Positions 269 through 13,663 are shown, numbered from the stretch's first letter. The stretch: 23,350 nucleotides of DNA from Planctomycetota bacterium (GCA_043803805.1 JAZDJP010000040.1:1-23350), one strand, 5' to 3'. Translations and numbers: made by a program. Notes: generated by a model from the letters alone, not told the origin.

Positions 269-845
269 TCATTTCCCCACGCCCACTCCCTTCCGGTACG
301 CCTCCCGCGCCCCGGCGGCGTCCCCGAGGAGTTCCCGGATCCGGCCAATTAAAATAAAACCCTCCGCATCCTCTCCCGCCCGGGCCATTTCCTCCCGGAG
401 CCGGGCATCGAGCGCCGCGAGGATCTTCCGATCGTCGTCGGTCACCGCCGGATCGCCGCGCATCCCCCGGGTGGCAAGGAACACCTCCACGTCCCGGCAG
501 GCCCGGTGCACCCCTTCCAGTTGCTCCAGCCGCGCCGCGCGTTCGAGCGTCCGCCAGAGCCGGGGGACAAACATCCCCGCCATGATCCCCGACGTGAGGA
601 GCACCGCCAGGGTGAACGCCGCCACGTCGCGGTTCCGGGTGAGGCGCTTGCGCAGAATGTACCACACCGACGGCGGCCGGGCGTGGATGGGCTCCCGCCG
701 GCAATTCCGGGGACACCATACTCAATTCGGATTCCGCCGCCTCCGGCGTCCCGGACGGGGCGACCGGGTTTGCCCCCGCCGCCCCCTCGCGCAGGAACCG
801 CGCGAGGGCTTCGGATGTCGAATAATTGAGCCGCGTGTCGGACAT
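269..845 (-). CDS. Putative ECF anti-sigma factor-like membrane protein that appears split across two reading frames (N-terminal segment 722-845 in one frame, TM plus periplasmic part 269-721 in another), suggesting a frameshift or sequencing error
   Basis: Lies immediately downstream of the ECF sigma gene on the same strand. The ATG at 845 gives MSDTRLNYSTSEALARFLREG... with high GC3 for about 45 codons. The frame ending at 269 has very high GC3 and encodes a TM helix (VAAFTLAVLLTSGIMAGMFV) plus an 80-aa charged domain. A G4 run near 708-711 is a plausible slip site. Confidence 0.4.
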
Positions 846-3241: not shown

Positions 3242-4720
3242 ATGGGTCCCATCCCTTTCCTGCCGCTGGCGGAAATTTCCGGCGGCCACGTGGTGCTGGC
3301 CGCCCTCGCGGTGGTCGTCATCTTCTTCATCCTCATGACGGTCCTCCTCAAACGCTACATCAAGGTGGGACCGAATGAGGCCCTCATCATCTCGGGCCGC
3401 AAGCACACCTACTCCGGCCACAAGGGGGAGGATATCGCCGTCGGCTTCCGGATCGTGAAGGGCGGCGGGACGTTCGTCTGGCCCTTCATCGAAAAGGTGG
3501 ACATCCTCTCGATGGAACTCCTCACCCTCGACGTCAAACTCGAGGACGTGTACACCATCACGGGAGTCCCGGTGTACGTGGACGGCGTGGCCCAGATCAA
3601 GGTCAAGGGGGACGAAATCTCCATCGCGACCGCGTCGGAACAATTCCTTGGCAAAGACCAGGGCGAGATCATGCAGATCGCCCTCCAGACGGTGGAGGGG
3701 CATCTCCGGGCCATCGTCGGGACGCTGACCGTCGAGGAAATTTACAAGAACAGGGAAATGTTCTCCCAGAAGGTCCAGGAGGTGGCCGCCGGGGACCTCG
3801 CCAACATGGGGCTCACGGTGGTGTCGTTCACGCTGCGCGAGATCAAGGACAAACAGGGGTACCTCGACGCCTTGGGCCGGCCGCGCATCGCCCAGGTGAA
3901 GCGCGACGCGACCATCGCGGAGGCCGAGGCCTCGCGGGACGCCACCATCAAGAGCGCGCAGGCCAACCAGGAGGCCCAGCAGGCCAAGTTCGGGGCCGAG
4001 ACCAGGATCGCCGAGGCCAACCAGAGTTACGAGGTGAAAAAGGCCGAATATCAGGTCAACATCAACTGCCGGAAGGCCGATTCTGACCTGGCCTATGATT
4101 TGGAACGGTACAAGGTCGCCCAGCAGGTCAAGGCGGAGGAGATCAAAGTCCAGGTGATCGAACGCGAGCAGATGATTGACATCCAGGAGAAGGAAATCTC
4201 CCGGAGGCAAAAAGAACTGGAAGCGACCATCCAGAAGCCCGCCGACGCCGAGCGGTACAAGATCGAGACGCTGGCCAACGCCCAGCGCTTCAAGTACCAA
4301 ACGGAAGCGGAAGGGCAGGCCCTGGCGACGAAGTCCATCGGGTTCGCCGAGGCCGACGCCTCCCGGGCCAAGGGCATCGCCGTCGCCGATGTCATCAAGG
4401 CCCAGGGGTTCTCGGAGGCCGAGGCGATGACGAAGAAGGCCGACGCCTGGAAGTGCTACAACGAGGCGGCGCTCGCGCAAATTATTGTGGAGAAACTCCC
4501 GGAGATCGTCCGGGCCGCCGCGGAACCCCTGGCGAAGACGGAAAAGATGATCGTCATCAACGCCGGGAGCGAAGGCGGCGGGGCGTCCAAGATCACCAAG
4601 GACGTCACCACCATCGTCAGCCAGGTGCCGCCGATCATCGAGGCGCTGACGGGCCTGAAACTCGAGGACCTCATCGCCAGACTGCCGGGGATGGGAAAGA
4701 AGGATGGGGAAAAGAAGTAG
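3242..4720 (+). CDS. Flotillin-like SPFH/band-7 domain protein (FloT/YuaG-like)
   Basis: N-terminal TM, an SPFH domain, then a long Ala/Glu/Gln-rich coiled-coil flotillin region (EAEASRDATIKSAQANQEAQQAKF...). SD AAGGAGA at 3228-3234. The ATG at 3242 is preferred over 3236 because of spacing. Confidence 0.85.
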   Translation: MGPIPFLPLAEISGGHVVLAALAVVVIFFILMTVLLKRYIKVGPNEALIISGRKHTYSGHKGEDIAVGFRIVKGGGTFVWPFIEKVDILSMELLTLDVKLEDVYTITGVPVYVDGVAQIKVKGDEISIATASEQFLGKDQGEIMQIALQTVEGHLRAIVGTLTVEEIYKNREMFSQKVQEVAAGDLANMGLTVVSFTLREIKDKQGYLDALGRPRIAQVKRDATIAEAEASRDATIKSAQANQEAQQAKFGAETRIAEANQSYEVKKAEYQVNINCRKADSDLAYDLERYKVAQQVKAEEIKVQVIEREQMIDIQEKEISRRQKELEATIQKPADAERYKIETLANAQRFKYQTEAEGQALATKSIGFAEADASRAKGIAVADVIKAQGFSEAEAMTKKADAWKCYNEAALAQIIVEKLPEIVRAAAEPLAKTEKMIVINAGSEGGGASKITKDVTTIVSQVPPIIEALTGLKLEDLIARLPGMGKKDGEKK

Positions 4721-4795
4721 TGCTGAGTACGAAGTTCTGAGTGCTGGGAACATCGTACAGGGGGGAGGGATAGTTGATAGTGAATAGTGGCCAGT

Positions 4796-4838
4796 AGGAA
4801 GTCGGCGAGTCCGCGAGTCGCCGAGTCGGAGAGTCGGC
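4796..4838. repeat. Tandem 8-bp NNNGAGTC array: GAGTC at 4807,4815,4823,4831 plus degenerate AAGTC at 4799, the opposite orientation to the 182-253 array
   Basis: Read directly from the sequence; followed by CTGAACT...TTTTCTGCGAG, a motif shared with the element at 8015-8049. Confidence 0.85.
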
Positions 4839-4941
4839 AACCTCTCCAACTCCTGAACTCACGAACTTTTCTGCGAGATGCGGACGACGAGGAACGAGCG
4901 ACGAATCGGGCCGGGACTGCCAACCGGCCCTTCTTCGTAAC

Positions 4942-6921: not shown

Positions 6922-7905
6922 TCACGCCGTCAACCGCCCCGTTTCAATCTCCCGGATGAGATTTTCAAGAAGGGCGATTTTGTCGGGGGGGAAGCGCCAC
7001 TGGCGGCGGTTCTCGTCGGAGAGAAGCCCCTTGAGTTGCGGAATCACAAGCATCTCGGCGGCATCCTCGCTCCGGAGCGCCCGCGCCACGTAGGATTCCT
7101 CGTCGCACGTCTCGAAGAAACTCTTGATGCCTTTTGCGGGATCGCCCCCCACCCGGGCGAAGTCCTGACCGTAGATGTGAAGGCTGAAAACGTGGTCGGA
7201 GTAGCTCCCCACCTTCACCGGCCGATTCGCTTTCGCGGCGATGTCCTTCGCGATCATCTGCTGGAGAAACGTGATTCCAATTAAATTATCCGGCCAGGCC
7301 TTGTAGAGGTCGCGGCTGCGCCAGTGGGTGCTTAAATTCAGCACGAGATTCCCGTCGGCGTCCTCCGGACAGCGGAATTGCATCTCCCGCAGGCACGGGA
7401 CGTCCTCCTTCAGGAACGGATCGAGCCAGGGCGCCGGGGTGGAGGCGACCGCCCGGCGGGTGTGCGGGGTCTTCGCGACGCGCTCGATGGCGAGCGCCAC
7501 CTGGTCCACCGTCCCGCCATCCGGCCCCGGGTGGGCGAAAAGCCTCTGGTGGTACGTGTAGGGCCACTCCGTCGCGGCGAGTTCCCCGTGGATGGAGGCC
7601 TTGAGTTTTTCCACCGGCACCACGAGATGGTCCTTCACTCCGAGAAACTCGGCGATGTAGGTCCCGATTTCGCAGAAGGACACCGCCGGGTAGCGCGGCT
7701 GGGCGAAGGGATCCAGAATTTCCACGAGGACGCGGGCGTCGCGGCTGGGCGGGTCCATGAACGACCCGTCCGGATTCTTCCGGTCGTACTCCGTCCGCAT
7801 GGCCAATCCGTTCTCCCACACCGCCTTCATGGCGCGGTAGTGGGCGCGGGGAATGGACTCGGCGACGACGTGAAGAGTGGGCAGGCGGCCGGGGTTCGTG
7901 GACAT
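6922..7905 (-). CDS. Divergent thymidylate synthase (ThyA) family protein; a thymidylate synthase or pyrimidine-nucleotide C5 hydroxymethylase-like enzyme
   Basis: Aligns by eye to ThyA core motifs: YTYHQRLF (~YGxQWR), DQVALAIERVAKTPHTRRAVASTPAPW (~DQ...DPxSRRxIxSAWN), PCLREMQFRC (~PCHxxFQFYV, catalytic Cys), LSTHWRSRDLYKAWPDNLIGITFL (~LSCQLYQRSxDxxLGxPFNIASYALL), DHVFSLHIY (~GDxHxY). SD GGGAGGA lies 6 nt upstream of the ATG at 7905. The longer ORF extension to 8058 is a translation of the GAGTC repeat and was discarded. Confidence 0.75.
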   Translation of the reverse strand: MSTNPGRLPTLHVVAESIPRAHYRAMKAVWENGLAMRTEYDRKNPDGSFMDPPSRDARVLVEILDPFAQPRYPAVSFCEIGTYIAEFLGVKDHLVVPVEKLKASIHGELAATEWPYTYHQRLFAHPGPDGGTVDQVALAIERVAKTPHTRRAVASTPAPWLDPFLKEDVPCLREMQFRCPEDADGNLVLNLSTHWRSRDLYKAWPDNLIGITFLQQMIAKDIAAKANRPVKVGSYSDHVFSLHIYGQDFARVGGDPAKGIKSFFETCDEESYVARALRSEDAAEMLVIPQLKGLLSDENRRQWRFPPDKIALLENLIREIETGRLTA

Positions 7906-7953
7906 GCGGATTCCTCCCGTAATAAATCGAGGATGTTCGTGATGCCGCCCCAT

Positions 7954-8095
7954 GAGTCTGGAGAGTCCGCGAGTCGGCGAGTCAGGGAGTCTACCCCCCT
8001 CCCCCCTGAACTTTCCACCTCTCTGACTCCGTCGGTTTTTCTGCGAGTCACAGGCCACAGGTCCGGGACTCGGTGACTCGAAGACTCACCGACTA
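7954..8095. repeat. Inverted pair of 8-bp-unit arrays: GAGTC x5 (7954,7963,7971,7979,7987) and GACTC x3 plus a degenerate unit (8067,8075,8083,8091), separated by about 75 bp that contains a CCCCCCTCCCCCCTGAACT...TTTTCTGCGAGTC motif
   Basis: Read directly from the sequence. It sits between the stop of the methyltransferase-PDZ gene (8100) and the ThyA-like start (7905), so it occupies the ThyA-like promoter region. Confidence 0.85.
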
Positions 8096-8099
8096 CTTC

Positions 8100-9131
8100 T
8101 TACCAAAGCGTCACCTCGATTTTCACCTTCCGTTTTCCGCGCACCATCACGAGGCGCAGTTTCTTCTCCTCGCCGACGGATTTTCGCAAGCGATGGATGT
8201 CGAGTTCCCCGACGGGACAATCGCTCACCGCGGCCAGGCGGTCCTTCGCCTTGACGCCGGCCTTCTCGGCGGGCGTGCCCGGAAGCACCTCCCCCACCGG
8301 CCAGGCGTCGCCCGTGCGCGTGATGTTCAGTCCGATCCCCAAAAGGGCCACCCCCAGACGCATGACATCGCAGGCCGCGTTCACCTCCACCCAGATGCCC
8401 TTCCCGGCCGGGACGGCCGTGATGACGGCCAGAGCCCCCGGCTCGCCGCGGTCCGAGTGATACGCGTATTCAAACGAGGCGATCCGGAAATCCGCCGTGT
8501 GGAGCGCACCCAGCCACTCCCGCGTCGCGGTCGAATCCTTCAGGGACGCGGCCGAAACGAGGATGCCGTCCTCCGCGAGCGCGCCCCGGACCCGCCGGAA
8601 CGCCTCCGCCCGCTCCCGGACGCATTCCACCGCGCGGGTGTCCACCGCCGCGTCGAAGGGCCCCCTGGGAAGCGCCTTCGTGAAATCCCCCGTCACGAAC
8701 TCGATATTTTTAATCTTGAGCGCCCCGGCCATCCGCCGCGCCTCGGCGACGGCGTTCCGGGCGAAATCCATCCCCGTGACGCGGGCCTTCTTGTTTCGCG
8801 CGGCGTACCACGTCGCGAGGTATCCGGTGGAACTCCCGAGGTCGAGGATGCGTTTCCTCTCACCGATCGCCTCCGCCGCCGCTTCCCCGGCCGCGCGGAC
8901 GGCGTCCGTGTGCATGGAGAGCACCACGGGCGCTATTTTCGGGTCGGCGGTGAAATTGGAAAACCCCTGCCAGTCCGCGAGATTGGATCCCTCGCGCTCG
9001 AGAGGCTGGAGAAGGGTCTGCACCTCGCGGGCGACCCGGGGGCCGAGTTCCTTCGCGGCCCAGTAGAAATAATCCACCGAGGTGAACCGCCGGAGGCCGA
9101 AGCGGACGAGATGCTTCTCCAGGGACGTCAT
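8100..9131 (-). CDS. Class I SAM-dependent methyltransferase fused to a C-terminal PDZ domain
   Basis: Methyltransferase motifs I (ILDLGSSTGYLATWYA), II (VTGMDFARNA) and III (IEFVTGDF) are present. The C-terminal 90 aa match the PDZ pattern (GIGLNITRTGDAWPVGEVLPGTPAEKAGVKAKDRLAAV...LRLVMVRGKRKVKIEV). Confidence 0.8.
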   Translation of the reverse strand: MTSLEKHLVRFGLRRFTSVDYFYWAAKELGPRVAREVQTLLQPLEREGSNLADWQGFSNFTADPKIAPVVLSMHTDAVRAAGEAAAEAIGERKRILDLGSSTGYLATWYAARNKKARVTGMDFARNAVAEARRMAGALKIKNIEFVTGDFTKALPRGPFDAAVDTRAVECVRERAEAFRRVRGALAEDGILVSAASLKDSTATREWLGALHTADFRIASFEYAYHSDRGEPGALAVITAVPAGKGIWVEVNAACDVMRLGVALLGIGLNITRTGDAWPVGEVLPGTPAEKAGVKAKDRLAAVSDCPVGELDIHRLRKSVGEEKKLRLVMVRGKRKVKIEVTLW

Positions 9132-9325: not shown

Positions 9326-12300
9326 CTAGTCCGTGCGCTCGACCTTCGCGGTGGCCGTCCTTACCAGCGCCGCCTTGCCGGAACCGTCCCAGAACCGCAG
9401 CGCGGCAACCACCTCGGCGCCCACCTTCAGGTACGGGCCATCGCGCGTGACGAGCTCGACAACGAGTTTTTTACCGGCATGGACGGTGATGGTATCCCGG
9501 GCCTTGGGGTCCTCTCCCGGAAAGAACTTGCCATTGTTTCCCACGGTCGCGACGTGCATGTTCCAGGAGAGATTGACGTCCTTCTTGCCGGCGGAGTTGT
9601 CCAACTCCACGGCCACCTTGGCGTGGAGCGGCGAGCCGCCGTCGGGGCCGGGATTGTCCACGACGGGCATCCAGTCGCGCCAGAAGTAGACGTCCCCGGT
9701 CTTAATCTTGCAGTCGCCAACGGCCTCCCCGCGCTGGAGCACCACCTCGGCCCTGCCCGGCTCGACGATCTCGATTTCCACGGGGCCGGTGGTGACCTTG
9801 CCGTTCCAGAATGCGGTCCCCGCTTGCGGAACGTCGCAAGCCGCGGTCATGACGTACTTGCCGGGCGGCAGGGACTTCGACAAGATGTTTTTCCCCTCCT
9901 CGCCGACGTTCCAGAACTCACACATCAACAACGCCTGCGCTTTTTCACCGGCCTGTAAATTCACATCGGGGCGGAGAGGCATCGGCTTCGGCGGCGGGTG
10001 AATGCTCGCCGTGTACGTTTTCTTGCTTTCTTGCGCGACAAGACGCACTTTCCAACTCCATGTGTCAAGCACCCAACCCGGCAGTTTTATGGGCTGATTT
10101 CCCGCGTTCATGAGACAAGCATCCATCACAACCGGCTTCCCGGCCTCGAACTTCGCCTGCTTGGCCGACAGCCCCGCTTGGAGGCCGTTCACCGCCGAGC
10201 CCCAGGAAATGTTTTCAGCCTCCTTTCCACCCTTTTCTATCCGAATCGTCCAGACGTTTGAACTGACTTTTCCGCGAATCTGACGGATTCTATATTCGCC
10301 GGGTTTTTCGAATGAAAAAAAAGTTGAAAGAGGGATAACAAGAGTTTGTTCCTGCCCCGACGCCAGGGAGTAGCGAGTGTTGACGATATGGTTGGCGATA
10401 CGGCCCTTCACGGCTTTCCCATCAGGACCGATGACTTCCAACAACGCCGCGTTAAATGCTCCGAGGTAGAGATTTTCCTGAACATCTTCTTGGTCCATTT
10501 GCTCGAAATGGCCGACGTCCTGTATGGCTTCCTTGCCGCCGTTTCTTACGCCAAGTGTGACTTTGATGACCTCGTTCGGTGCGTATTCCGTCTTTTCCGA
10601 CCAGACGCCGCATTGAAGCCCCGCGTTCAGCCCGACCGACGCCTGGCCCCAGGAGATGTTGTCCTTCGGCACCGTCGATTTCGCGCCGCTTTTATCCCTG
10701 ACCTCGATCCTGATTGAACCGGTCTCCACCGCACCCGTCCATGCGGGAACGAGGTTCTGGGGCACGACCCTGACGTGTTTTCGCGTGTCGCCTCCCCATT
10801 GATATTTCGCTTTGACAAGGTACTCTCCTGCCGGCAAGGCATCGACATCAATCTTGGCGCCCGCAGGGGAGTTCCCGATTTTCCAGAATCCGCCGACCTC
10901 GCCAAAAACGATGGTCTCGATTTTCCGATCCTTCTTTTCGAATTCGCCAAGAGAAATATCTTCCCCTCCCGCCGACTTCGTCCAGTAGTAGATTTCTTTC
11001 CTTTCCCCGGATTCAAACGAGAGCGCGAACCGGTCCGGATGGTCCCAAGCATCCAGCCGGAGCGCTTTTCCCCCCGTATTTTCAAAATGAATAGCGAAAT
11101 TCATGGATTCGCCGGCCCTGAATACGTTTTGTCCTGCGGTTGCGATCCCCGCCTGCAGGCCGTTGACGGGCTGGCCCCAAGAAATGTTTTCAGCCTCCTT
11201 TCCACCCTTGGTCTGAATTTCAACCGCTGGTGAGCCGGCCTCGCCTATCCAGACTCCTTCCTTGCGGAGTTTTTCCAAGTACGCAACCGCCTCCGCCTTA
11301 TTGGCCTCGGTGTTCTCAACAAGGGAGTCCAGCGTCAGGGCGTACCGGAATCGCACCGCGCGGGCCCTTGCCTCCGGCGCGGCGCCGAAGAATTCCTTGA
11401 GAGAGCCCGACGAAAGCGCCGCGGTTTCCCCCGGCGCGATGATTTTGCGCTTGCCGTCGTAGATGCCGGCGTCGAGCACCGCGAGTTCTCCAGTTTTGTA
11501 GCTGAGCCCCTGACGTACGACCGCCCCCTTCTCGTCCACGAGTTCCCAGCCGGAGGAACCCCGATAGGTGCAGAGCGTCACGGGTTTGTCACCCTCGTTT
11601 CTGACAAATGCCCCGGCGCGCAATCCGTCTCGGTCTTTCGTCAACCGGACGCCAACAGACAGGCCGTTGACCGGCTGGCCCCAGGAAATGCCGTCGTTTA
11701 CGGGTGAATCCGTAGGGGCGGGTTTCAAACCCGCCCCTACATTGTCGGTTTTTTTCGTGACGTCCTCGCCCGCCCTGCACCCCGCCACCACCACCGCCAT
11801 TGCGAGAAACACCATTCCTGTGAATCCCAGCATCCAGGTATTCATCCGCGTCACAAGACGCCTCCTTTCGTCAAGAATTCCTTTCACACGCTCCTCAAGA
11901 TTCCACCGGGGATGCACGAGGCCCACCGCCGCCGGTGTGCGGTGGAAGATGCTCGTCTTCTCCGCGAGATCCAAGAGCATTTTGGCGTAACCCGGCGCGT
12001 TCCCCCGCCGCAATACATAATTGTCGCACACCTCCTCGCGGGCGCGGGCGAGTTCGCCGTTTGCCTTCCAGACAAACGGATGCCACCAGAACACGACTTC
12101 CGCGATGCGCTGAAGAAGTCCCACCAGATGATCCCGCTGAAGAACGTGGGCGCATTCGTGGACGAGAATATCGCGAAGTTCCACCGGACCGAGAAGTCCC
12201 GCCACCGGCGTCGGAAGCAAAATCATCGGCCGCGTGATGCCGAAACAGATCGGCCCCGTGATCTGCCCCGACATGCCGATCGGAGGAAGCGCGCGGACGC

Positions 12301-12880
12301 CGAGCGCATTTTTCACATCCGCCAGGACGGGCCCCATCTCGTCGTCATCCAGCGGGATGGCGCTTGTCCGGAGCGCCGTCTGGACTCCAAAACCATGAAT
12401 CAGACGAACCAGCATGACAAGAACTCCCCCCGCCCAGACGAGAAAAACGCCGCACACCGCGGCCCGAATCCGGTCCGCTCGGGAAAGCGGCGGCGACGCG
12501 GGTTTCACGGGCGTCGCCGGCGCGGTCTCCGCGCGGACGACCGGCGCCGGATGCGGGGAGACCGGGATGACGGGTTCCGAAACGGTTTGGATCGACGTCG
12601 CCGGTGCGGCCGCCGCCGGTGGGGAAACAGGTTTCTCCCTCAAGAAAGGAAGAGTAAACGTCGTGATCCCCGCCGCCTCCGCCACCACCGACACCAGCGG
12701 CGCGAGAAGCACCACCGCCAGGGCCGACAGCCACAATCCGTAACGGACGGCCGCCCCCGCCCGGCGGAAAATCCGGGAAAGCATCCAGGCCAGAGCCACC
12801 ACCACCGTGACCTGGATCAACGCATTCATCGCGGCGAGCGCCGCGGCGTCACCAAGATAAAATCGGAGAAGCGTCCTCAT
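9326..12880 (-). CDS. blaR1: BlaR1/MecR1-family M56 peptidase signal transducer (anti-repressor) with a very large C-terminal extracytoplasmic sensor built from about four tandem repeats, each of about 190 aa, carrying an ISWGQPVNGL motif
   Basis: N-terminal TM helices and the zinc-metalloprotease motif VHECAHVLQRDH characteristic of BlaR1; a further TM at about aa 350; the repeats contain DGISWGQPVNGL, ENISWGQPVNGLQAG, DNISWGQASVGLNAG and ENISWGSAVNGLQAG. The gene overlaps the upstream blaI-family gene by 4 nt (ATGA). Confidence 0.85.
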   Translation of the reverse strand: MRTLLRFYLGDAAALAAMNALIQVTVVVALAWMLSRIFRRAGAAVRYGLWLSALAVVLLAPLVSVVAEAAGITTFTLPFLREKPVSPPAAAAPATSIQTVSEPVIPVSPHPAPVVRAETAPATPVKPASPPLSRADRIRAAVCGVFLVWAGGVLVMLVRLIHGFGVQTALRTSAIPLDDDEMGPVLADVKNALGVRALPPIGMSGQITGPICFGITRPMILLPTPVAGLLGPVELRDILVHECAHVLQRDHLVGLLQRIAEVVFWWHPFVWKANGELARAREEVCDNYVLRRGNAPGYAKMLLDLAEKTSIFHRTPAAVGLVHPRWNLEERVKGILDERRRLVTRMNTWMLGFTGMVFLAMAVVVAGCRAGEDVTKKTDNVGAGLKPAPTDSPVNDGISWGQPVNGLSVGVRLTKDRDGLRAGAFVRNEGDKPVTLCTYRGSSGWELVDEKGAVVRQGLSYKTGELAVLDAGIYDGKRKIIAPGETAALSSGSLKEFFGAAPEARARAVRFRYALTLDSLVENTEANKAEAVAYLEKLRKEGVWIGEAGSPAVEIQTKGGKEAENISWGQPVNGLQAGIATAGQNVFRAGESMNFAIHFENTGGKALRLDAWDHPDRFALSFESGERKEIYYWTKSAGGEDISLGEFEKKDRKIETIVFGEVGGFWKIGNSPAGAKIDVDALPAGEYLVKAKYQWGGDTRKHVRVVPQNLVPAWTGAVETGSIRIEVRDKSGAKSTVPKDNISWGQASVGLNAGLQCGVWSEKTEYAPNEVIKVTLGVRNGGKEAIQDVGHFEQMDQEDVQENLYLGAFNAALLEVIGPDGKAVKGRIANHIVNTRYSLASGQEQTLVIPLSTFFSFEKPGEYRIRQIRGKVSSNVWTIRIEKGGKEAENISWGSAVNGLQAGLSAKQAKFEAGKPVVMDACLMNAGNQPIKLPGWVLDTWSWKVRLVAQESKKTYTASIHPPPKPMPLRPDVNLQAGEKAQALLMCEFWNVGEEGKNILSKSLPPGKYVMTAACDVPQAGTAFWNGKVTTGPVEIEIVEPGRAEVVLQRGEAVGDCKIKTGDVYFWRDWMPVVDNPGPDGGSPLHAKVAVELDNSAGKKDVNLSWNMHVATVGNNGKFFPGEDPKARDTITVHAGKKLVVELVTRDGPYLKVGAEVVAALRFWDGSGKAALVRTATAKVERTD
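10183..10234. repeat. Intragenic DNA repeat, copy 1 (52 nt; the last 34 nt are nearly identical to 11175-11208)
   Basis: GGCCGTTCACCGCCGAGCCCCAGGAAATGTTTTCAGCCTCCTTTCCACCCTT matches 11157-11208 with about 6 mismatches, and the 3-prime 34 nt differ at a single position. It encodes the KGGKEAENISWGQ segment of a sensor repeat. Confidence 0.7.
11157..11208. repeat. Intragenic DNA repeat, copy 2 (paired with 10183-10234)
   Basis: See copy 1. Weaker, more diverged copies occur near 10621-10660 and 11671-11700. Confidence 0.7.
11702..11730. repeat. 29-nt perfect palindrome GTAGGGGCGGGTTTCAAACCCGCCCCTAC located in frame inside the blaR1-like ORF, where it encodes the GAGLKPAPT linker segment
   Basis: Exact self-reverse-complement with a 14-bp stem; same family as 5641-5669 (opposite loop orientation) and 6874-6901. 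Confidence 0.8.
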
Positions 12881-13275
12881 GCGCGTTTCCTCCCCTTCTC
12901 GGCCGTGTCAATGAGTTTCCGGATGCGCGTGGTCTCCTCGGAGGTGAGATTCTCCCCGTCCACGAGGGCCGCCACGAGCCCCGACGCGGATCCCGCGAAG
13001 ACGGTCCGCACGAGACGCGACACGATCCCCCCCAAGGCCTGTTTGCGTTCGGTGGCCGCGGAATACACAAAACTGTTCCGCACCGCCCGACGAACCAGCC
13101 ACCCCCGTTCTTCGAGGCGCGTCATGTGAGTGAGGACGGTGTTCCGGGCCACCGGCCGCCGGGCGCGCAGAACATCCCAGACGTCCGCGACCGACGCCTC
13201 CCGGCGTTCCCAGATCACGTTCATGATCTCGAGTTGTCCGGGAGAAAGGGTTTCCGTGGAAGACATTCGGCCCAT
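12877..13275 (-). CDS. blaI: BlaI/MecI/CopY-family (penicillinase repressor) winged-helix transcriptional repressor
   Basis: N-terminus LSPGQLEIMNVIWERREASVADVWDVLRARRPVARNTVLTHMTRLEERGWL has the typical BlaI DNA-binding domain, followed by a C-terminal dimerisation region. SD GGAGG lies 6 nt upstream of ATG 13273-13275, and the stop overlaps the blaR1 start. Confidence 0.85.
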   Translation of the reverse strand: MGRMSSTETLSPGQLEIMNVIWERREASVADVWDVLRARRPVARNTVLTHMTRLEERGWLVRRAVRNSFVYSAATERKQALGGIVSRLVRTVFAGSASGLVAALVDGENLTSEETTRIRKLIDTAEKGRKRA

Positions 13276-13293
13276 GCGAGACCTCCTTCTCAA

Positions 13294-13345
13294 CGATTGT
13301 TGTAGGCATAATACCTACCCGAGTAGGCATTGACAAGAAAAAAAA
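13294..13345 (-). promoter_or_regulatory. Candidate blaI-blaR1 promoter with an overlapping operator
   Basis: The minus-strand read gives -35 TTGTCA, a 17-nt spacer and -10 TATTAT. The spacer contains the dyad GCCTAC-TCGG-GTAGG, and a further GCCTAC follows the -10 hexamer. Confidence 0.5.
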
Positions 13346-13390: not shown

Positions 13391-13447
13391 GATCCCGATG
13401 AAATCGTGATGACCGGCCGAAACGCCTGCGCCATCGCCGGACCTCCG

Positions 13448-13663
13448 TCAGATCCCCGGGGCGGTCGGGGTGGTCGGCGCGACCGGGACGGCCGGGACGA
13501 CCGACGGCAGGGACAGGGGCGGAGACGGGGGCAGCGGCAGGGGGGAAATCGCCGGGGGCGGCGTTTCGACCGTTCCCATTTTCCGCCTTAACTTTTCCTC
13601 ATGCTTTCGTTTCTTGGCGATGTCCCGCTGTCGCTTCGCAAACGCATAATTGGGCTTGGCCAT
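13448..13663 (-). CDS. Hypothetical small basic protein (MAKPNYAFAKRQRDIAKKRKHEEKLRRK...) with a Pro-rich C-terminal tail
   Basis: AGGATGG SD-like sequence 6 nt upstream of the ATG. The N-terminal 30 aa look like a real basic peptide. The C-terminal half lies in a GC-rich low-complexity tract, so the call is uncertain. Confidence 0.3.
   Translation of the reverse strand: MAKPNYAFAKRQRDIAKKRKHEEKLRRKMGTVETPPPAISPLPLPPSPPLSLPSVVPAVPVAPTTPTAPGI

Follow-up and report, generated by a model that had tools for sequence, protein, structure and literature searches.

The spacer at positions 7906-8099 of a Planctomycetota contig separates two genes that are both encoded on the - strand, a methyltransferase gene with a PDZ domain and a gene for a thymidylate synthase-like (ThyA-like) protein, and it is filled by two arrays of the pentamer GAGTC that face each other as an inverted pair, in the following referred to as a doublet. 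The window, i.e. the whole stretch of DNA that was analysed, is a complete contig of 23,350 bp (G+C 61%) from a metagenome-assembled genome (MAG) labelled Planctomycetota. The doublet, the genes on either side of it and two further copies of the repeat in the window are located as follows.

8100-9131, - strand: open reading frame (ORF) for a class-I S-adenosylmethionine (SAM) methyltransferase with a C-terminal PDZ domain; TAA stop at 8102-8100
8067-8095, - strand: stop-proximal arm; gene strand TAGTC-ggt-GAGTC-ttc-GAGTC-acc-GAGTC, one degenerate and three exact boxes, period 8
7992-8066, no strand: doublet centre of 75 nt with a C/G tract, two lone boxes and a CCTGAACT...TTTTCTGCGAG segment, which is also present in the 4799-4877 copy
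8037-8047, + strand: TTTTCTGCGAG, identical to 4867-4877; together with CCTGAACT a non-array module common to two copies
7994-8006, - strand (gene strand): GGGGGGAGGGGGG tract, directly abutting the proximal array
7954-7991, + strand: start-proximal arm; five exact GAGTC (GACTC on the gene strand) at 7954, 7963, 7971, 7979 and 7987, spacing 9, 8, 8, 8
7912-7918, - strand: Shine-Dalgarno sequence GGGAGGA of the ThyA-like gene, beyond the limits of the repeat
6922-7905, - strand: ThyA-like gene for a divergent protein of the thymidylate synthase superfamily, scoring under curated cut-offs; ATG at 7905-7903
185-253, - strand: second copy; AAGTC and eight exact GAGTC, nine spacers all different, then GGGGAGGGAATGGGGG (184-169)
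4799-4868, + strand: third copy; AAGTC and four exact GAGTC (4799-4835), then degenerate inverted boxes (4839-4868)

On the + strand, the stop-proximal arm consists of exact GACTC boxes at 8067, 8075 and 8083 and, as its last unit, a degenerate GACTA at 8091-8095, and the lone boxes of the centre read GACTC (8025-8029) and GAGTC (8045-8049). Altogether, the 194-nt spacer contains 10 boxes, compared to 0.40 expected from dinucleotide shuffles (Poisson 2e-11). A preliminary description of the locus had reported opposed GAGTC/GACTC arrays about 75 bp apart that form a long imperfect inverted repeat, the distal one 5 nt after the upstream stop and the proximal one about 50-85 nt before a ThyA-like start with a strong Shine-Dalgarno sequence. 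Indeed, we could validate this geometry: five exact boxes face three exact boxes and a degenerate one across 75 nt, the degenerate first box on the gene strand (TAGTC, 8095-8091) begins 5 nt past the TAA stop of the methyltransferase gene, the proximal array covers the region 49-86 nt ahead of the ThyA-like ATG, and the Shine-Dalgarno sequence is found at 7918-7912. A repeat search returned inverted arms of 29 nt with 76% complementarity (7960-7988/8062-8090) and of 28 nt with 79% complementarity (7964-7991/8067-8094), and the arms 7954-7991 and 8067-8095 are complementary in several registers. The warning that the ThyA-like ORF is wrongly lengthened was also correct, since the mechanical ORF 6922-8058 (378 aa, GTG start) adds 51 codons across the array to a product that is deposited at 327 aa with an ATG start (P0001, 100% identity).

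Beyond the preliminary description, period-8 GAGTC arrays are also present at 185-253 and 4799-4835, both in spacers between co-directional genes, and 20 of the 39 GAGTC/GACTC sites of the window are located within four period-8 arrays in three such spacers. The array at 185-253 is separated by 24 nt from the upstream gene end (269), as inferred from G+C at third codon positions (GC3), and by about 117 nt from the next ATG (68), and it has no inverted partner. The copy at 4799 is located between a flotillin-like gene (stop at 4720) and the next ORF, and its array is directly followed by the inverted degenerate boxes AACCT/AACTC/AACTC/AACTT (4839-4868; period 9, 8, 8). The same order, array, CCTGAACT, TTTTCTGCGAG, is found in the regions 4799-4877 and 7954-8047, whose genes are on opposite strands. 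All three occurrences of GGGGAGGG in the window adjoin GAGTC arrays (169-184, 4760-4769, 7994-8006) and lie on the gene-sense strand, the one near the 4799 copy as GGGGGGAGGG at 4760-4769. Around 140-284 and 4788-4879, the period-8 signal runs past the exact boxes into the flanks. In other genomes, among the matches listed (see below), a GGGGAGGG-type G tract is found up to 60 nt 5' of the array in 9 of 128 cases, compared to about 2.4 expected; these tracts, often GGGGAGGGGGATAGGG, occur mostly in Chloroflexota (loci L003, L021, L053, L063, L092, L105).

When the 23 units in the four arrays of the window are compared, the boxes are far better conserved than the spacers: only 3 of 115 box positions depart from GAGTC, compared to 35 of 69 spacer positions that depart from the consensus of their column (Fisher p=4e-15), and the period is 8 throughout save for one spacing of 9. 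Slippage would give identical units and decay would be uniform across positions, and therefore the pentamer must be under constraint, in phase with an 8-bp period, to produce this pattern. In the window, GAGTC/GACTC is the sole pentamer with period-8 arrays of three or more copies. The array at 185-253 keeps eight perfect boxes without a partner, and pairing between arms therefore cannot explain its conservation. We propose that the functional unit of the family is the phased array, with one GAGTC per 8 bp and free 3-bp spacers. As far as can be judged from the sequence, the box/spacer pattern argues that these pentamers are recognition boxes, against plain slippage and for a sequence-specific reader. 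A plain microsatellite or variable-number tandem repeat (VNTR) was rejected for the window arrays, because the near-identical units of such repeats are not found here, where 18 different spacers occur among the 23 units. In the rest of the window, GAGTC/GACTC is rarer than expected (17 observed, 30.9 expected, 7th most depleted of 512), and GAATC/GATTC is not (69 compared to 68.2). The arrays do not look like a GANTC methylation cluster of the CcrM/HinfI type on this ground and because the central G is kept on one strand in them.

When one genome per species was scanned for stretches with four GAGTC boxes at period 8, at least 117 loci from many phyla were returned, and the counts that follow were made among the matches listed (L001-L117) unless another set is named. 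Array edges are non-random: in 137 arrays including those of the window, the pattern is xAGTC-NNN-(GAGTC-NNN)n-GAGxx, i.e. the unit before the first exact box usually equals AGTC without the first G, and the unit after the last box equals GAG without TC. In other loci, about 88% of the arrays fall between genes. No orientation with respect to the genes is preferred, with 23 sense, 26 antisense, 19 in divergent and 12 in convergent spacers (91 arrays from high-GC loci, based on crude gene calls). A Pfam scan of 150 ORFs flanking arrays at the 117 loci revealed no enriched family and no common function; the neighbours are ordinary housekeeping genes that are unrelated to each other. GAGTC arrays are also carried by strains of Akkermansia and Streptomyces. 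We found no description of GAGTC tandem arrays in bacteria in the literature. That GAGTC arrays are special by their spread across phyla was rejected, as control pentamers are comparable or commoner in viral contigs. One locus in a second Planctomycetota genome (L009, MAG DATLAR010000363.1, 660-760) holds variable-spacer GACTC boxes, the last of them 13 nt before a start codon, together with TTGAACTTTGG, which is similar to CTGAACTTTCC of the window, and a possible promoter-like arrangement TTGACC-N17-TAGACT overlapping the boxes.

The arrays are not specific for a gene. The four closest ThyA-like homologue loci (L118, L376, L377, L379) carry no upstream arrays and their neighbours differ, like arrays occur in the window in two spacers beside unrelated genes, and a search of the spacer 7906-8099 for a sigma-70-like promoter found none. 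A ThyA-like-specific operator was therefore rejected, and with it the proposal that the arrays form an operator or looping device at the ThyA-like promoter; the reading of the doublet as a local regulator is largely wrong. A tie to the adjacent methyltransferase was dropped as well, since it is a generic class-I SAM enzyme with a PDZ domain and not a DNA methyltransferase. There is good support for regarding the spacer 7906-8099 as occupied by a single member of a dispersed, lineage-specific family of intergenic repeats built of phased GAGTC boxes, here in the convergent-doublet form that is usual for the family, in which the boxes are read 5' to 3' toward the centre from each side.

The polarity of such doublets is fixed. 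The order GAGTC..GACTC was found in 32 pairs at 25 loci, with centres of 12-158 nt, and the opposite order in none. The carriers comprise at least 17 species-level genomes, mostly Acidobacteriota, besides two Chloroflexota, one Patescibacteria, one genome labelled Actinomycetota and the present Planctomycetota contig. Doublets are carried, for instance, by Pyrinomonadaceae OY969475.1 and by Thermoanaerobaculia MAGs. In viral contigs, the same order occurred twice and the opposite order not at all, and a scan of 241 million metagenome records for the opposite order only returned five cases, three of which are true inverted pairs, all of the unit GGTGACTC/GAGTCACC. These five (L381-L385) are Joint Genome Institute (JGI) metagenome contigs; the GGTGACTC/GAGTCACC unit obeys a GTGAC-first or G-first rule, and in L383 a direct array switches its central base from GACTC to GAGTC with the spacer unchanged. 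A GAGTC/GACTC duplex is the same in either order, and the polarity is therefore not thermodynamic. In lineages with variable spacers, the arms lack spacer complementarity, and the doublet centres show no clear mod-8 register.

Several known systems resemble these elements. Repetitive extragenic palindromes (REPs), bacterial interspersed mosaic elements (BIMEs) and REP doublets forming hairpins (REPINs), including GTAG- and CGTC-tagged ones, are likewise short, abundant and intergenic beside unrelated genes, often near a stop codon, and either occur alone or pair up into inverted dimers at distances of 20-100 bp, in which the head/tail arrangement is fixed (PMC3733652). REPs were also reported in the Planctomycetes or Planctomycetes-Verrucomicrobia-Chlamydiae (PVC) group and in Chloroflexi (PMC3733652). 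Indeed, the GAGTC family is REP/BIME-like in behaviour, as it is short, abundant, located between unrelated genes in either orientation and often paired, with three window spacers and 32 inverted pairs. Several arrays open with GTAG(TC): the 8067-8095 arm opens with GTAGTC and the 4799 array is preceded by GTAG, but neither 185-253 nor the outer side of 7954-7991 has such a tag, and the frequency of T at the pre-array G position is only 0.16 (137 arrays, including those of the window). However, a REP unit is a stem-loop of 20-40 bp, whereas the arms here are direct tandem GAGTC-NNN repeats of 5-bp boxes with free spacers and no self-complementarity, the self-folding of the spacer resembles that of shuffles, pairing is limited to that between arms, and the doublet centres vary in length and sequence. 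Membership in the REP family fails because the stem-loop unit is absent, even though the genomic behaviour matches.

The closest match to the array itself is found in the ribbon-helix-helix (RHH) protein ParG, which coats ACTC boxes that are separated by 4-bp gaps and thus recur every 8 bp; the boxes are both direct and inverted, and each of them is bound by one RHH dimer (PMC3130281). The parH centromere and the OF operator of plasmid TP228 contain 8-12 boxes with a (G)ACTC core per 8 bp and spacers that are not read directly, and are bound by cooperative RHH dimers (PMC3130281). The present arrays agree with this design in their period of 8 (one 9), their 4-9 boxes, their unconserved spacers and the presence of direct as well as inverted boxes, both in the pair 7954-7991/8067-8095 and where GAGTC is followed by inverted AACTC at 4839-4868. 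In contrast to the AT-rich spacers of the ParG arrays, which lie beside parFG on a plasmid, spacers here are GC-rich, the arrays are scattered over chromosomal spacers, and their vicinity lacks genes for RHH or ParA proteins. On tandem boxes, the behaviour of MetJ (8 bp) and omega (7 bp) is similar to that of ParG. In the metboxes of MetJ and the heptads of omega (pSM19035), RHH dimers polymerise on tandem 8-bp or 7-bp boxes, in the case of omega both direct and inverted, but these are gene-specific operators of 2-10 boxes with a whole-unit consensus and not a family dispersed over the genome. ParG is the best precedent for the putative box reader.

Other systems share single traits. Bacterial VNTRs and microsatellites are short intergenic tandem units, and many GAGTC matches elsewhere are exactly such, but the window arrays keep the box, randomise the spacer and use one box in four arrays. 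The RNA targets of TRAP (11 G/UAG triplets with spacers of 2-3 nt) and CsrB-like sponge RNAs also combine short boxes and free spacers with a multimeric reader; they act on one RNA strand with flexible spacing, unlike the strict period, both orientations and two-fold symmetric doublets found here. In vitro, the nickases N.BspD6I and Nt.BstNBI drive polymerases such as Bst polymerase to synthesise tandem or palindromic repeats that carry the nickase's own site (reviewed in PMC10520511), but identical units are expected from such synthesis, and no enzyme was identified here. The element is a variation on known dispersed intergenic repeats and box arrays.

We tentatively favour, without giving it even chances, the reading that the spacer carries a dispersed REP/BIME-like repeat to whose phased boxes a protein may bind cooperatively at the DNA level, with a register of 8 bp, by analogy with ParG and MetJ. 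An orientation-sensitive, sequence-specific protein would recognise the GAGTC boxes on double-stranded DNA, bind one box per 8 bp and polymerise cooperatively along the array in the manner of RHH proteins. Such a coat would cover nearly the whole spacer, leaving free 5 nt after the stop of the upstream gene and about 50 nt ahead of the start of the ThyA-like gene, and might act as a boundary or roadblock between the two genes or occlude a promoter. We favour a protein on double-stranded DNA because the boxes are conserved and the spacers free, the 8-bp register is strict and long single arrays exist, and also because both gene orientations are used and the doublets are two-fold symmetric. The preliminary description had likewise invoked a repeat-binding protein; this part is kept as our best guess, as a putative reader acting genome-wide rather than as a local regulator, for which the arrays beside unrelated genes give no support.

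A number of observations weigh against this reading. Neither the tested window proteins nor the 150 flanking ORFs yielded a cognate protein: no RHH, ParA, transposase or restriction-modification protein was found in the former, no enrichment of these classes in the latter, and no domain of the RHH/ParG/MetJ/Omega type in either. A close relative of the MAG is absent from the databases (the closest ThyA-like homologues are about 70-73% identical at the protein level). The GAGTC depletion derives from no more than 23 kb (z=-2.5), with only a weak effect (ratio 0.90) when the loci are pooled, many GAGTC matches elsewhere are perfect 8-mer microsatellites of up to 36 copies, and control counts in viral contigs, with four pentamers equal in composition, gave 30-95 period-8 stretches compared to 49 for GAGTC. 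The arms can also pair as RNA, with an inter-arm duplex of -39.9 kcal/mol compared to -23.1 +/- 4.0 kcal/mol for shuffled arms (0/1000), and the first array after the stop is GAGUC-sense in all three window copies. Finally, the polarity extends beyond GAGTC. A motif-agnostic Tandem Repeats Finder (TRF) scan of all fetched loci (L001-L387) returned 105 inverted tandem-array pairs with periods of 6-10, whose 5' arm contains more G than C in 91 cases and more C than G in 12, and unit families without any query pentamer also have the G-rich arm first (32 compared to 4). This rule hints at an RNA-level or other general cause over a GAGTC-specific protein.

The G-rich arm lies 5' on either strand (e.g. 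L220 4312-4440, L237 6953-7040, L280 5754-5951), and the window doublet conforms to the rule. Purine-richness (82:20) and keto-richness (67:33) were rejected as the basis of the polarity, since they separate the arms less well than GC skew (91:12). As an exception, the acidobacterial family AAGTCTCA keeps the AGTC orientation, contrary to the GC-skew rule. Inverted tandem-array doublets were also found in a Planctomycetota relative (L118 3293-3403) and directly after a ThyA-like homologue (L379 4989-5076), and in some high-GC phage contigs a doublet is located between most genes, often just upstream of a start codon; a megablast search against INPHARED returned no annotated phage relatives of L280, which carries such phage-borne doublets. 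To our knowledge, neither a description nor an explanation of the G-rich-arm-first rule exists.

Among the alternatives, the one that we take most seriously, while judging it unlikely, is an RNA punctuation hairpin, in which the co-transcribed GAGUC arm after the stop would zip in several registers with the GACUC arm before the Shine-Dalgarno sequence and thereby protect the upstream 3' end, slow or partly terminate read-through, or keep Rho away from the C-rich arm, which, when it is the second to be transcribed, would be paired immediately and could not serve for Rho loading. We keep this explanation alive because no reader was found, because the polarity rule is independent of the sequence, being most easily explained at the transcript level, and because of the box-only duplex; shuffling the spacers alone leaves the duplex at -40.5 +/- 4.5 kcal/mol, and the pairing potential therefore resides entirely in the boxes, without selection for spacer pairing. 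The GAGUC-sense arrays in three co-directional window spacers and the phage doublets between co-directional genes just before start codons fit as well, as does the location of REPs mostly downstream of ORFs and between unidirectional or convergent genes (PMC3733652). Against it, RNA folds of the three whole spacers are not significant compared to dinucleotide shuffles (z=-0.98, -0.29, -2.07; -0.98 for the doublet spacer), the box spacers of the two arms show neither complementarity to each other nor compensatory pairing, most arrays, including that of nine units at 185-253, are partnerless with perfect boxes, and arrays and doublets also occur in divergent spacers, with the unbiased orientation mentioned above. 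The gene strand of the spacer has no terminator-like hairpin with a U-run; the sole terminator-like site, with a stem of 5 bp at 8023-8035, belongs to the + strand, i.e. it is antisense to both genes, and shuffles give as many. The search for a known RNA family was negative: Rfam 15 covariance models gave no hit at the gathering threshold in the whole window and none at E<=1 in 7850-8150. The preliminary idea of an attenuating cruciform or RNA hairpin holds only in that the arms can pair: the whole spacer folds like shuffles as RNA and only marginally better as DNA (z=-2.26), and a stable RNA hairpin or intrinsic terminator was rejected. A selfish REPIN- or MITE-like (miniature inverted-repeat transposable element) repeat without host function at this site, whose boxes would be sub-terminal transposase sites, with the doublet as the mobile form and single arrays as half-elements, appears rather improbable. 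It would account for the dispersal among unrelated genes, for the non-array module shared by two copies in opposite orientation relative to the genes, and, by oriented end-binding sites, for a fixed polarity, and it recalls the inverted REP dimers 20-100 bp apart and, in the many arrays opening with (G)TAGTC, the GTAG tag of REPs (PMC3733652). However, doublet centres within one genome vary in length and sequence, unlike MITE copies, target-site duplications were not seen, the arms are direct repeats and lack the stem-loop by which REPs are defined, a transposase is found neither in the window nor beside the arrays at other loci, and mobility alone does not explain perfect boxes with diverged spacers.

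We consider it quite improbable that the arrays derive from a GAGTC-specific restriction-modification or nicking enzyme, either by nick-primed slippage and fold-back synthesis or as methylation clusters. GAGTC is the site of PleI, MlyI and N.BstNBI, which cut 4-5 nt 3' of it, and also that of the nickases N.BspD6I and Nt.BstNBI. Every site of a doublet would direct the cut or nick toward the centre, and if synthesis folded back after nicking on the 3' side of GAGTC, exactly the order GAGTC..GACTC would result. This origin is in line with the depletion of GAGTC but not GAATC outside the window arrays, with the nickase-driven repeat synthesis reported in vitro (PMC10520511) and with a patchy distribution, which horizontal spread of such enzymes would explain. 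Templated amplification, however, would result in identical units instead of 18 distinct spacers in 23, unrelated unit sequences obey the polarity rule too, the depletion is weak in the pooled loci, and no restriction-modification gene was found among the tested window proteins, the adjacent methyltransferase not being a DNA methyltransferase. A restriction or nickase origin, which does not explain the diverse spacers, thus serves as a lead only. Still less credit can be given to neutral 8-nt slippage repeats that contain GAGTC by chance: period-8 arrays of any pentamer are common in viral contigs and many matches elsewhere are perfect 8-mer repeats, but the conserved boxes beside nearly random spacers, the use of one pentamer in four separate window arrays and the absolute polarity (32 compared to 0) contradict it. 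Equally far-fetched is the idea of the preliminary description that the doublet is a local operator, looping device or attenuator dedicated to the ThyA-like gene; the position of the proximal array before its ATG and the complete filling of the spacer speak for it, and the like arrays beside unrelated window genes, the array-free homologue loci without conserved synteny and the lack of a sigma-70-like promoter in the spacer speak against it.

With regard to the flanking genes, the methyltransferase (8100-9131) is closest in type to small-molecule and protein methyltransferases. The ThyA-like protein is remote from canonical ThyA (Pfam, 39 bits), its top NCBIfam match being the archaeal-type TIGR03283 (98.7 bits, cut-off 174.55), and it belongs to a large family of about 330 aa (2062 matches at E<=1e-20; Hydrogenedentota, Latescibacterota, Planctomycetota); its substrate may be other than dUMP. 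Upstream of the 185-253 copy, the coding signal of the GC3 frame plot in 269-845 (- strand) changes frame near 670-720 (ORF 90-845 to ORF 269-667), which may reflect a frameshift in the gene or a misassembly; no Pfam or NCBIfam match was obtained for the protein of this region. Elsewhere in the window, the palindrome GTAGGCATAATACCTAC, followed by a second GTAGGCA half-site (13302-13337), lies directly upstream of a gene pair and looks like a candidate operator of the BlaI-like repressor.

12877-13293, - strand: BlaI-like gene, downstream of the 13302-13337 palindrome
9326-12880, - strand: BlaR1/M56-like gene, paired with the BlaI-like gene

Besides the GAGTC arrays, the sole other strongly periodic segment of the window is a G-rich tandem repeat at 13444-13558 (period 9/12, CGGGGCGGT-like, then GGCAGAGACAGG-like) within the spacer of about 700 nt between the BlaI-like repressor gene and a GH123-like gene.

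For annotation, these results mean that gene callers lengthen ORFs across the arrays, as the mechanical ORF list did here, and that GAGTC arrays are not to be taken as regulators of the neighbouring gene. On a broader and decidedly speculative level, phased GAGTC arrays and inverted tandem-array doublets may together represent widespread undescribed gene-boundary elements, read by an orientation-sensitive protein or by the transcription/Rho machinery, in which case the near-absolute polarity, with GAGTC directed toward the centre or, more broadly, the G-rich arm in front, would be a functional law of bacterial and phage intergenic architecture and not a consequence of shared ancestry. If the element acts as RNA, it would represent a new design of a multi-register intercistronic hairpin. 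If a protein coats the arrays, as we tentatively favour, many gene boundaries of this Planctomycetota lineage would be marked by a sequence-specific nucleoprotein array, likewise in several Acidobacteriota and Chloroflexota that carry GAGTC doublets, and this would constitute an undescribed form of bacterial chromatin or insulation.

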